From: Acidimicrobiales bacterium
GTDB lineage: Bacteria; Actinomycetota; Acidimicrobiia; Acidimicrobiales; SZUA-35
NCBI GenBank assembly: GCA_965263455.1
Contig: CBDHHN010000004.1
Coordinates: 383,174-447,173 of the forward strand
DNA length: 64,000 bases
Direction of reading: 5' to 3'
The number at the start of each line of letters is the position of its first letter. Positions within the stretch are counted from its first letter, which is position 1. The notes under the pieces were generated by a model, which saw nothing but the letters and a program-made list of their open reading frames with translations, ran no database searches and was not told the DNA's origin. Shown here one piece after another: positions 33,765-36,597 of the stretch. The translations under genes were made by a program, and so were the position numbers.

Positions 33765-34037
33765 TCACCCGTGACACTGCTTGAACTTCTTGCCACTCCC
33801 GCAGGGGCAGGGAGCGTTGCGCGGGGTCTTGTCCCAGTCGTCCTTGACCACCGTCCGGCTGGCCTTGGGCTGCTCCTCGGCCTCGGGCCCGGCCGAGGCC
33901 GAGGGATCGGTCTTGGAGGTCGTGAGGTCCTCGCTGCGGACGGTGGGGTTCACCAGTCGTCCGGTGGTCGAGACCGGAGCCGGCGCGGTGGCCGCCTCAG
34001 CCTGGTCGGCCCCGGCCGACGTGGCGCCGCTGGCCCG
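33765..34037 (-). pseudogene. secA: SecA C-terminal tail (flexible linker plus Zn-binding motif) displaced into a different frame from the secA body
   Basis: My translation of the frame of ORF 33765..33953 extended upstream gives ...[87 protein letters not shown]. The frame is open through the whole repeat. Confidence 0.8.
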
Positions 34038-36597
34038 ACGTCGAAGTCGAGGTCGAGGTCGAAGTCGAGGTCGAAGTCGAGGTCGACGTCGAGGTGGAGG
34101 TGGATGCCGACTCGGCCTTGGGCTCGGCCGGTGCCGCCACCTCGACGTGCATGATGTACTTCACGTAGTCGACCGACAGGGCGCTCATCATGGCGCTGAA
34201 GAGGTCGTAGCCCTCCCGCTGCCATTCCGTCAACGGATCCCGCTGGCCCATGGCCCGCAGGTTGATGCCCTCGCGGAGGTAGTCCATCTCGGTCAGATGG
34301 TCGCGCCACCGTTGATCGATCAACTGGAGCATGACCTGACGCTCGATCTGTCGGAGCACGTCGGCCCCGATCTCGGACTCGCGCTTCTCGTAGTGGGCGT
34401 GGCCCTCGTCGACCAGACGGCCGCGGAGCTCGGCGGTCGAACCGCAGGCGGCGAGCTCATCGACCGTCACCTCGCTCGGCCAGAACGACCGAAGCTCGGT
34501 CTGGAGCCCGTCGAGATCCCAGGTGTCGTCGAGTTCCTCCATGCAGTAGGTGCCGACCAGTACTTCGGCCACCTCCTCGATGGCGTCGAGGGAGTCCTGG
34601 CGCAGATCTCCCTGGTCCAGGATCTGCTGGCGGCGCCGGTAGACCACCTTGCGCTGCTGGTTGAAGACCTCGTCGTACTTGAGGACGTTCTTGCGGATCT
34701 CGCCGTTGCGCTGCTCGACGGTGTTCTGGGCCCGCTCGACCGACTTGGTCACCATGTTGGACTCGATCGGAACGTCCTCGGGGAGGGCTCGATCCATGAC
34801 CCAGTTCATGGCCCCGGTGGCGAAGATCCGCATCAGGTCGTCTTCGAGCGAGAGGTAGAAGCGGCTCTCGCCCGGGTCGCCCTGACGGCCCGACCGACCC
34901 CGGAGCTGGTCGTCGATTCGGCGGCTCTCGTGGCGCTCGGTGGCCAGGACATAGAGGCCGCCCGCCTCCCGCACCTCGGCTCCGTTGGTCTCGCAGATCG
35001 GACCCCAGTAGTCGAGGCGCTTGGCGTAGTGGGCCTGCCCCTCCTCGGTCTCCAGATCGAGCCCCTCGGCCTTGGTGTCACGCTCGGCCAATTTCTCGGC
35101 GTTGCCCCCCAGGATGATGTCGACGCCGCGGCCCGCCATGTTGGTGGCCACGGTCACGGTGCCCGACGTCCCGGCCTGGGCCACGATGTCGGCCTCGCGG
35201 AAGTGGGCCTTGGCGTTCAGCACCTCGTGGTTGACGCCCCGCTGGTCGAGGAGTCGGGAGAGCTTCTCCGACTTCTCCACCGACGCGGTGCCGACCAGCA
35301 CCGGCTGACCGTTGGCCACCCGCTCCTCCAGGTCATCGACCACGGCGGCGAACTTGGCGTCTTCGCTCTTGTAGACCAGGTCGGGCTCGTCCCGACGCTG
35401 GATGGGGCGGTTGGTGGGGATCTGCACCACGTGGAGGCCGTAGGTGGTCTCCAGCTCGGCGGCGTCGCCCAGAGCCGTACCCGTCATTCCGGCCAGCTTG
35501 TCGTAGAGACGGAAGTAGTTCTGCAGCGTGACCGTGGCCATGGTCTGCTGCTCTTCCTTGATCTGGACACCCTCCTTGGCCTCGACCGCCTGGTGCAGGC
35601 CGTCGGACCAGCGGCGTCCGTCGAGGACCCGGCCCGTGAACTCGTCGACGATCTTCACCTCGCCGTCGACGACCAGGTAGTCCTTGTCCCGGTTGAACAA
35701 CTCCTTGGCCCGCAACGCCGCGTTGAGCTGGTGGATCAGGTCGGCCTGGACCCCGTCGTAGAGGTTCTCGACCTCCAGGATCTCCTCGACCCGGGAGATG
35801 CCGTCGTCGGTGATGGCCACGATGCGCTTCTCCTCGTCGACGTCGTAGTGGACGTCTCGTCGGAGTTGGCGGACCACGTCGGCGAAGCGGTAGTAGAGCT
35901 CGGCCGCCCCCCGGACCTTGCCGCTGATGATGAGCGGCGTCCGGGCCTCGTCGATCAGGATCGAGTCGATCTCGTCGACGATGGCGAAGGCGTGACCCCG
36001 CTGGGTCATGGCATCGAGCGAGCGGGCCATGTTGTCCCGCAGGTAGTCGAACCCGAACTCGTTGTTGGTGCCGTAGGTGATGTCGGCCGCGTACTGGGCC
36101 CGCTTGTGGGTGGCGTTGTTGTTGCCGGGGACGACCAGTCCCGTGGTGAGGCCGAGCCAGCGGTGGATCTCGCCCATCCACTCGGCGTCGCGGGAGGCGA
36201 GGTAGTCGTTGACCGTGATCTGGTGCACGCCCCGGCCGGCCAGGGCGTTGAGGTAGACGGGGAGGGTGGAGACGAGCGTCTTGCCCTCGCCCGTCTTCAT
36301 CTCGGCCACCGAGCCCCAGTGGAGGGCGACGCCGCCCATGATCTGGACGTCGTAGTGGCGCTGGCCGATCACCCGCCAGGCCCCCTCCCGGACCACGGCG
36401 AAGGCCTCGGGCAGCAGGTCTTCGAGGTTCTCGCCGTTGTCGATGCGGGTCCGGAACTCGGCCGTCTTGGCCTGCAACCGACCATCGCTGAGGGCCTGCA
36501 CCGAGGGCTCGAGGGCGTTGATGGGCTCGACCAGCGCTTTCACCGCCTTGAGGCGGCGTCCGTCTCCGGCCTTCAGGATCCTGTCGAGCAGTTTCAT
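33997..36597 (-). CDS. secA: preprotein translocase ATPase SecA (body; ends prematurely after a poly-Ser-Thr repeat)
   Basis: Shows [27 protein letters not shown] (Walker A), [30 protein letters not shown] and [17 protein letters not shown]. The C-terminus reads ...[39 protein letters not shown]. Confidence 0.93.
34038..34104 (-). repeat. hexamer/12-mer tandem repeat (GTCGAGGTCGAA on the + strand; TCGACC/TCGACT in the secA sense) encoding (ST)n
   Basis: Direct reading: acgtcgaagtcgaggtcgaggtcgaagtcgaggtcgaagtcgaggtcgacgtcgaggtggaggtgga. Confidence 0.9.

Follow-up and report, generated by a model that had tools for sequence, protein, structure and literature searches.

The window, the whole 64-kb stretch of DNA that was analysed, carries on its minus strand a secA gene followed by prfB, the gene for release factor RF2. 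Our analysis confirms that a frame change of one base, shortly past a Ser-Thr repeat, divides secA and separates an intact zinc-finger tail from the remainder of the protein. The features of the locus are as follows.

33997..36597, minus strand: secA ORF of 866 aa (ORF list, Pfam, homology)
34036..34101, minus strand: imperfect hexamer tandem array (TCGACC/TCGACT/TCGACG) of 11 units, poly(Ser-Thr) in the secA frame (TRF, codon table)
34008..34041, minus strand: interval holding the net +1 frame change (codon-usage log-odds, GC3 frame plot)
33997..34035, minus strand: out-of-frame secA ending with its TGA (translation, codon usage)
33765..34034, minus strand, +1 frame: SecA C-terminal tail of 89 residues, with flexible linker, conserved block, zinc-binding motif and TGA (translation, end-to-end alignment with homologue tails)
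33912..33947, minus strand: conserved linker block of 12 residues, matching P(T/V)V..(E/S)DLT(T/A)(S/T)K of relatives
33768..33821, minus strand: SEC-C / metal-binding motif of 18 residues (Pfam PF02810)
33756..33764, minus strand: spacer of 9 nt separating the tail stop from the prfB start, CGGCGACCG (sequence)
32643..33755, minus strand: prfB (RF2), a single 370-aa ORF without programmed frameshift (Pfam PCRF and RF-1)

The 866-aa frame consists of the catalytic core, the N-terminal stretch of the linker, (ST)n and 13 aberrant residues, and it closes with TGA at 33999-33997. The four core domains appear in the expected order of motor, cross-linking, second P-loop and wing/scaffold, each matched near its full profile length: SecA_DEAD (PF07517, E = 2.7e-120), SecA_PP_bind (PF01043, 2.9e-40), P-loop_SecA (PF21090, 3.8e-85) and SecA_SW (PF07516, 1.4e-64). 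They are complete up to residue 819. The SEC-C motif is not contiguous with this core; it lies in the +1 frame, 78 codons past the 0-frame stop. The out-of-frame ending is Arg/His/Gly-rich, includes the rare codons CGA and CCA, and is unlike the linkers of homologues, which are rich in Ala, Gly, Asp, Glu, Pro and Lys.

The +1 frame supplies what the 866-aa ORF lacks. It encodes linker and a SEC-C motif (PF02810, E = 1.6e-10, profile positions 1-18 of 19) and stops at 33767-33765; the 62-aa ORF at 33765..33953 is merely the end of this reading frame. Removal of a single base yields a SecA of 943 aa, with homologues covered over 100% of the length and up to 83% identity. An earlier note on this DNA had described the 866-aa ORF running through (ST)n into 13 nonsense residues, a tail frame ending 9 nt before prfB whose last part is the 62-aa ORF, and a SecA of ~950 aa restored by skipping one base; the ORF list, translation, TRF and Pfam bear out each of these points. 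The same note pointed out that the tail frame is open across the repeat. That is true and uninformative, for all three minus-strand frames are open across the array and, at 71% GC in the window, 36% of all 130-codon frames are stop-free; what counts is therefore the homology of the tail, not its openness. Over the 29 codons around SEC-C there is one difference from the family consensus, to a conservative residue. Relative to related genes this block has a dN of 0-0.05 and a dS of 0.7-1.4, with synonymous sites near saturation (tail dN/dS ~0.03), which means that selection acted on it until very recently.

The start codon of prfB is an ATG at 33755. Relatives likewise have the single-ORF form of this gene, and their secA-prfB spacers measure about 0-160 nt, often 3-30 nt. 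A genuine break would end translation of secA 241 nt before the prfB start rather than 9 nt, where relatives conserve a short spacer.

The array has a period of 6, 11 copies and 0% indels according to TRF, and all of its units are intact and in frame. It is missing from the 12 closest homologues and is a lineage-specific insertion in the hypervariable SecA linker. The rare codon ACT recurs inside it, and reading the array in the tail frame would need the rare codons CGA and CTT. Another (TCGACC)n array, also in frame, is found in a different gene at 4727-4809.

The minus-strand sequence of the 33,950-34,150 region is TCGACGTCGGGCCAGCGGCGCCACGTCGG, with TCGGGCCAGCGGCGCC at 34020-34040. Codon-usage log-odds are flat and maximal for a junction at 34038-34008, that is, 0-30 nt past the 3' edge of the array; a junction inside the repeat scores 2-9 bits worse, and one placed at the stop or within the final three codons 4-8 bits worse. 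The GC3 frame plot places the phase switch at 33991-34021. The break lies beside the array and not within it, which refines the earlier note's placing of the frame change exactly at the repeat; all 11 units are intact. The change could be an extra base in TCGGGCCAG or the loss of 2 nt (AC) from a terminal TCGACG unit, and an extra G or C in the former is as parsimonious as the missing AC in the latter. The surroundings are low-complexity and GC-rich, with the 66-nt array adjoining short G/C runs (GGGCC, GGGG), and the longest homopolymer at the break is 4 nt.

Alignment with relatives, the check that had been recommended, finds secA continuous with its tail and followed by prfB in ~160 related Acidimicrobiia loci, with one exception. 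The tail is kept in all of the best 120 protein hits that reach the C-terminus. The best match among 5.8 billion proteins is an Acidimicrobiia SecA at 83% identity. In scans of GTDB genomes and metagenomes the C-terminal third matched at about 70% at most, and the 80% matches in these scans are contig-end fragments without the tail. Neither the 866-aa SecA nor prfB nor the 62-aa tail ORF had a match in exact-product look-ups, and no same-species sequence was found by exact look-ups, the search of 5.8 billion proteins, or the GTDB genome and metagenome scans. The exceptional locus, L053, comes from a Nanopore Microflora Danica MAG (PMC12313526) and carries a +1 break of its own, arisen independently, in the linker of secA, with the tail intact and no repeat, in a sequence context unrelated to that of the window. 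A further locus, L014, is broken in the middle of ftsE. Together, these two apparent frameshifts in assemblies of the clade amount to about 2 in 800 conserved gene copies.

No second frameshift was detected within the 64 kb by the GC3 frame plot, stop-to-stop ORF statistics, comparison of 50 ORFs with Pfam, or manual inspection, the last covering 15.0-17.7 kb, 9.6-10.3 kb and 61.4-62.8 kb. Some 55 genes of the window have full-length Pfam coverage, each in a single ORF. This excludes a generally error-prone assembly, a conclusion on the window at large and not on the single secA site.

The comparisons establish the break, the intact homologous tail and the continuity of secA in relatives. With modest confidence, we favor a 1-nt indel from sequencing, consensus calling or assembly as the source of the break, and infer that the organism's own DNA lacks the extra base. 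The organism would then have an ordinary, continuous secA of ~943 codons, made up of the core, a variable linker with the (Ser-Thr)n insertion and the SEC-C tail, and its translation would end 9 nt before prfB. In the window, one base would have been added (or two lost, to the same effect) where the array ends on its 3' side or within the next 30 nt, making secA look truncated and its tail an orphan reading frame. The undecayed state of the tail (SEC-C at E = 1.6e-10, dN 0-0.05) is what an artefact predicts. The same reading is favored by the full-length homology regained on removal of one base, by the apparent frameshifts of L053 and L014 in assemblies of this clade, by the low-complexity, GC-rich surroundings of the break and by the short spacer to prfB. 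Retention of the tail in essentially all of the ~160 loci implies that its loss should be selected against, and a real loss allele should a priori be rare as a genome consensus. Three observations count against an artefact: with a longest homopolymer of 4 nt, the spot is not a classic site of long-read error, the remainder of the 64-kb window is clean, and the break happens to fall in the single part of secA that tolerates a frameshift. The earlier note had listed an assembly indel in the repeat, a slipped-strand variant and ribosomal frameshifting as explanations. Its parts list was right, and the first of the three is the most likely reading once the indel is moved from inside the repeat to beside it, but a plain recent frameshift mutation, the main rival, was omitted.

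Such a mutation is a serious possibility, though we consider it doubtful on balance. In evolutionary terms it would be very young: at the margin of the growing Ser-Thr array, 1 nt would have been inserted or 2 nt deleted, perhaps through the same slippage in replication or recombination by which the array arose. The recurrence of the rare ACT codon suggests that the array was amplified recently and, with that, that mutation is active here. The cell would make an 866-aa SecA with the full catalytic core and no metal-binding domain (MBD), a natural SecA-delta-MBD, and the tail DNA would be a young pseudogene remnant whose decay had not yet begun. The absence of other frameshifts from the window fits a real event. 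So does its position, as the linker is the only place in secA where a frameshift spares the essential core; were the mutation real, selection would leave just such a break in this sole tolerant part. Moreover, SecA without the MBD or the whole C-terminal tail still keeps E. coli viable, and of 156 SecA proteins in a survey, 39 are naturally without an MBD (PMC6620043). Against this, the tail is conserved in practically all relatives at a dN/dS of ~0.03, so that its loss should be deleterious, and in E. coli deletion of the MBD with the linker kept is the worse case, giving poor growth (PMC6620043). The event would also have to be extremely recent to leave the tail without decay, and it would uncouple translation of secA from that of prfB.

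Programmed +1 frameshifting before or at the RF2-specific UGA (33999-33997), by which some ribosomes would make a tailed SecA, is very improbable. Its attraction lies in the setting: the 0-frame stop is a UGA, read by RF2, prfB follows directly, the tail comes out intact wherever between 34038 and the stop the +1 shift falls, and the rare CGA and CCA ahead of the stop could be slow codons. The arrangement might then act as an RF2-sensing device that brings ribosomes to the prfB start, 9 nt past the tail stop. One could go further and imagine, with still less likelihood, a real break passed, at low efficiency, by a +1 shift on or immediately ahead of the UGA, at which scarce RF2 would send more ribosomes through the SEC-C tail to the prfB start, raising RF2 by translational coupling and setting the ratio of tail-less to tailed SecA. 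That RF2 autoregulation would in effect have been transferred out of prfB to the 3' end of the gene upstream is an equally remote proposition.

The site itself has none of the three properties of a prfB-type +1 site, namely a re-pairing P-site codon, a stimulatory element and conservation. No CUU_U, CCC_U or similar motif is present in 34040-33997. The codons before the UGA are CGA CCA GGC, and a P-site GGC cannot re-pair in the +1 frame, where the sequence reads GCU and mismatches at the middle position. In prfB-type signals the Shine-Dalgarno sequence stands about 3 nt before the shift codon. Here the only Shine-Dalgarno-like run, GGGG, ends ~12 nt before the UGA when counted on the sequence. 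Codon usage weighs ~5-8 bits against a junction at the stop, and no relative shares the two-frame arrangement: the ~160 loci are continuous and the only other break, in L053, sits in an unrelated context. An RNA structure or known RNA element at the break was considered and rejected, with a minimum free energy of -63.8 kcal/mol against a shuffle mean of -62.4 kcal/mol (z = -0.35) and no matching Rfam family at the site. These results tell against ribosomal frameshifting as the earlier note proposed it, and the break is most likely not a regulatory device.

Phase variation, in which slipped-strand mispairing in the repeat would toggle the SecA tail within a population, can be given very little credence. 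A tandem repeat does adjoin the break, and poly-Ser-Thr arrays recur in the genome. Contingency loci require a unit not divisible by three or a long homopolymer, and the site has neither a homopolymer of 7 nt or more nor any repeat unit other than a multiple of three. Gain or loss of a 6-nt unit keeps the frame, which contradicts slippage-driven switching. Every unit of the array is whole (0% indels), the second (TCGACC)n array keeps its frame, and secA belongs to the housekeeping genes rather than to surface or contingency genes. Finally, it is extremely unlikely that the tail is made separately as a 62-aa SEC-C peptide of a split SecA, since although the ORF has a GTG start at 33953 and an intact SEC-C motif, this GTG would sit inside the region of the conserved 12-residue linker block, has no convincing Shine-Dalgarno sequence upstream (accaccggacgactgGTG), and corresponds to no such split in any relative.

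Annotation should regard secA here as a single gene in which an indel is suspected, rather than listing a truncated SecA alongside an orphan SEC-C ORF. If the break were true, this would be a natural MBD-less SecA in a clade that otherwise universally keeps a strongly constrained MBD. The proposed MBD partner in some bacteria is the ribosome, not SecB (PMC6620043), and a true break would offer a modest but usable natural experiment on the role of the tail in such a setting. Wider interest would arise only from recoding, which the data do not support.

The locus recalls several known systems. It shares with simple-sequence contingency loci a tandem repeat in a coding region next to a frame change, and differs from them in having a unit that is a multiple of three, an intact array and an essential housekeeping gene. 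In Neisseria and Haemophilus, such loci produce phase variation by repeat slippage. The programmed +1 frameshift of prfB uses CUU UGA C with an upstream Shine-Dalgarno sequence. The likeness of the secA site to it extends to the +1 change needed, the 0-frame UGA and a location directly upstream of prfB; the window's secA has no CUU-type codon, correctly spaced Shine-Dalgarno sequence or conservation, and its prfB is itself unshifted.

Another resemblance is to the gene-fragmenting indel errors of genome and MAG assemblies (PMC12007338, PMC9262707), which cause the same split into adjacent ORFs in different frames; there, too, both halves fit one family perfectly, the downstream half shows no decay and the gene is continuous in relatives. 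The site in the window differs in having no long homopolymer; if it is an error, it is an isolated one in 64 kb and tied to the edge of a low-complexity repeat. As regards the protein, the locus encodes the parts of an MBD-containing SecA as described in 2019 (eLife, PMC6620043): a core, a variable linker and a CxCxSGx8CH zinc motif at the extreme C-terminus. The ORF as written would give a SecA that keeps part of the linker without the MBD. Its truncation is no designed deletion but stems from a frame break in the sequence, and its linker carries the lineage-specific (Ser-Thr)11 insertion.

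The secA gene of the window, the short +1-frame stretch that follows it and the downstream prfB are arranged as follows, all on one strand.

36597..33997, minus strand: secA open reading frame, 866 codons, a complete SecA core by Pfam
34036-34101, minus strand, in the secA frame: hexamer array of period 6, 11 units, no indels (TRF)
stop at 33767-33765, minus strand: +1-frame tail of 89 residues, translated one base further on
32643-33755, minus strand: prfB, a single 370-codon open reading frame whose ATG lies nine bases past the tail stop

Pfam matches the DEAD-like motor, the preprotein cross-linking domain, the second P-loop and the wing/scaffold of the 866-codon frame at near full profile length. 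A run of 23 alternating Ser/Thr codons lies 3' of this core, and the array is followed by 12 out-of-frame residues and a TGA (33999-33997). The last 18 residues of the tail form a SEC-C domain (Pfam, E = 1.6e-10), and dropping one base yields a protein of 943 residues. An earlier note had described the locus accurately. It also pointed out that the tail frame has no stop anywhere in the repeat, but this is uninformative, because all three frames are stop-free there; 36% of all 130-codon frames in the window (GC 71%) contain no stop.

Every hexamer unit is intact and in the secA frame. Read in the tail frame, the array gives RPRLRP... from CGA and CTT, which are among the rarest codons of the window genes. 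Every possible junction was scored with codon usage from 16 confident window genes; the best scores form a plateau from 34038 to 34008. Placing the junction inside the array costs 2-9 bits, and placing it at the stop or in any of the three codons before it (CGA CCA GGC) costs 4-8 bits. An independent GC3 frame plot switches phase between 34021 and 33991. The change therefore falls either right at the array's 3' edge or no more than 30 nt past it, and the simplest events would be a single added base in TCGGGCCAG or a lost AC in a terminal TCGACG unit. The frame of the open reading frame at 1856-2974 stays at GC3 0.84-0.96 past its stop (2975-3787, plus strand), across two more in-frame stops; this probably reflects lumazine synthase, which is encoded on the other strand (3028 to about 3530).

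In a search of 5.8 billion proteins with the repaired SecA as query, the top 120 hits are without exception SecA from Acidimicrobiia, roughly 900-980 residues long; they cover 100% of the query except for a few contig-end fragments or entries marked partial, and nearly all contain SEC-C. Top identity is only 83%, so the collection holds no entry from the same species. Alignment with the 12 closest proteins divides the C-terminus into a conserved scaffold-domain end, a hypervariable, Ala/Gly/Asp/Glu/Pro/Lys-rich linker of 30-110 residues, a conserved P(T/V)V...DLT(T/A)SK block and an almost invariant 29-residue segment. The +1-frame tail matches the last two residue for residue, and the 12-residue ending as written matches nothing in this alignment. 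On this comparison the (Ser-Thr)11 run is a lineage-specific insertion within the variable linker. A survey of JGI metagenomes and of GTDB, with each species represented by one genome, gave 160 loci; with frame breaks re-checked by tblastn, secA is continuous in all that reach the C-terminus save one, L053. Among these loci secA is closely followed by an unshifted prfB; the gap between the two measures about 0-160 nt, in many cases 3-30 nt. This conserved closeness makes the tail frame the operon-compatible one, as the earlier note had argued. prfB is uninterrupted (~370 codons) in the window and in the relatives examined among loci L001-L045, so the clade is without the programmed +1 frameshift of many bacterial prfB genes.

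In the 29-codon SEC-C block, the window differs from five relatives at 8-12 codons synonymously and 0-3 non-synonymously (dN 0-0.05; dS 0.7 or more, close to saturation at synonymous sites). Strong constraint has thus acted on the protein sequence of the tail for practically all of the time that separates the window's lineage from its nearest known relatives, and no decay is visible. On this pattern the break is either extremely young or altogether absent from the organism's DNA.

We lean towards the latter, an assembly or sequencing artefact, and by the same token rather favor the one-base-repaired reading, a continuous secA of 943 residues. The tail is perfectly intact. Across the clade it is almost universal and tightly constrained, so a genome consensus with a loss allele should be rare. 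The break adjoins a GC-rich, low-complexity tandem array, and if real it places the secA stop 241 nt rather than 9 nt before the essential prfB, disrupting a conserved tight arrangement. Long-read assemblies are known for indels that split genes (PMC9262707, PMC12007338), and comparable breaks occur in the relatives' assemblies, in ~2 of 800 inspected copies of conserved genes. The first is in L053 (CAVRSZ010000007.1, 3780-3960), from a Nanopore MAG of the Microflora Danica (MFD) project (PMC12313526): its secA linker carries an independent +1 break; the SEC-C tail is intact, there is no tandem repeat, and the secA core and neighboring prfB, ftsE and ftsX are unbroken. The second, in the MAG contig L014 (CBDCGP010000012.1, about 5589-5689), is an apparent mid-ftsE frameshift, with tblastn HSPs in two frames overlapping at residues 78-111; an assembly error is the likeliest cause, and the case served as a base-rate example.

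A real, recent frameshift mutation is less probable but deserves serious consideration. The window is otherwise clean, with ~55 genes showing complete domain coverage in single open reading frames; no long homopolymer lies at the site; and the break falls in the sole part of secA where a frameshift leaves the essential core whole. E. coli still grows when its SecA is without the whole tail or the metal-binding domain (MBD), though poorly with the ΔMBD form, and the domain is naturally missing from 39 of 156 surveyed SecA proteins (PMC6620043).

Recoding, phase variation and a split gene are improbable even taken jointly. The first two, both raised in the earlier note, found no support. Slipped-strand phase variation requires a long homopolymer or a unit not divisible by three; this array has 6-nt units and is free of indels, and the longest nearby homopolymer is GGGG. 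Nothing speaks positively for programmed +1 frameshifting: GGC before UGA makes +1 re-pairing impossible, and the only G-rich Shine-Dalgarno-like run ends ~12 nt upstream of UGA, as against ~3 nt in the prfB paradigm. The 151 nt around the site fold no more stably than dinucleotide shuffles (z = -0.35), Rfam has no match there, and the two-frame arrangement is common to no relative examined. An RF2-sensitive +1 shift at UGA, coupling synthesis of the secA tail to prfB translation, is very improbable. Translation of the tail alone from GTG 33953 has no plausible ribosome-binding site and no precedent in relatives.

A second (TCGACC)n array (4727-4809, plus strand) lies in an unrelated gene, the open reading frame 4654-5349, and is likewise in frame. 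It shares at least 24 nt with the secA array and encodes poly(Ser-Thr) near the N-terminus of a protein without a Pfam match, probably secreted or lipoprotein-like; poly(Ser-Thr) linkers of one hexamer thus recur in the genome. Another tandem repeat (9/48 nt, 10689-10795) encodes the His/Asp-rich C-terminus (HDHHHDHGDHHDHGDHH...) of an accessory protein in a nitrile hydratase cluster. Rfam matches across the window comprise one tRNA and a tmRNA, both away from secA; the tag peptide of the latter is AAKRPTSLSLPDHSGS by ARAGORN.

8997-9695, plus strand: nitrile hydratase beta subunit
about 9692-10330, plus strand: nitrile hydratase alpha subunit
third gene of the cluster at 8997-10800, plus strand: accessory protein with an NHase-beta-N-like domain
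23700-24170, plus strand: smpB, with the tmRNA directly after
24285-24674, plus strand: tmRNA (Rfam, 84.8 bits)

Against known systems, the window gene is a standard SecA with a standard C-terminal tail, and its frame break resembles ordinary gene-fragmenting indels. Of the testable features that define a prfB-type recoding site the break shows none, and the same holds for those of a contingency locus. Nothing is new under the artefact or the recent-mutation explanation; at best, the locus would be a natural SecA-ΔMBD allele within a clade where the domain is otherwise retained throughout.
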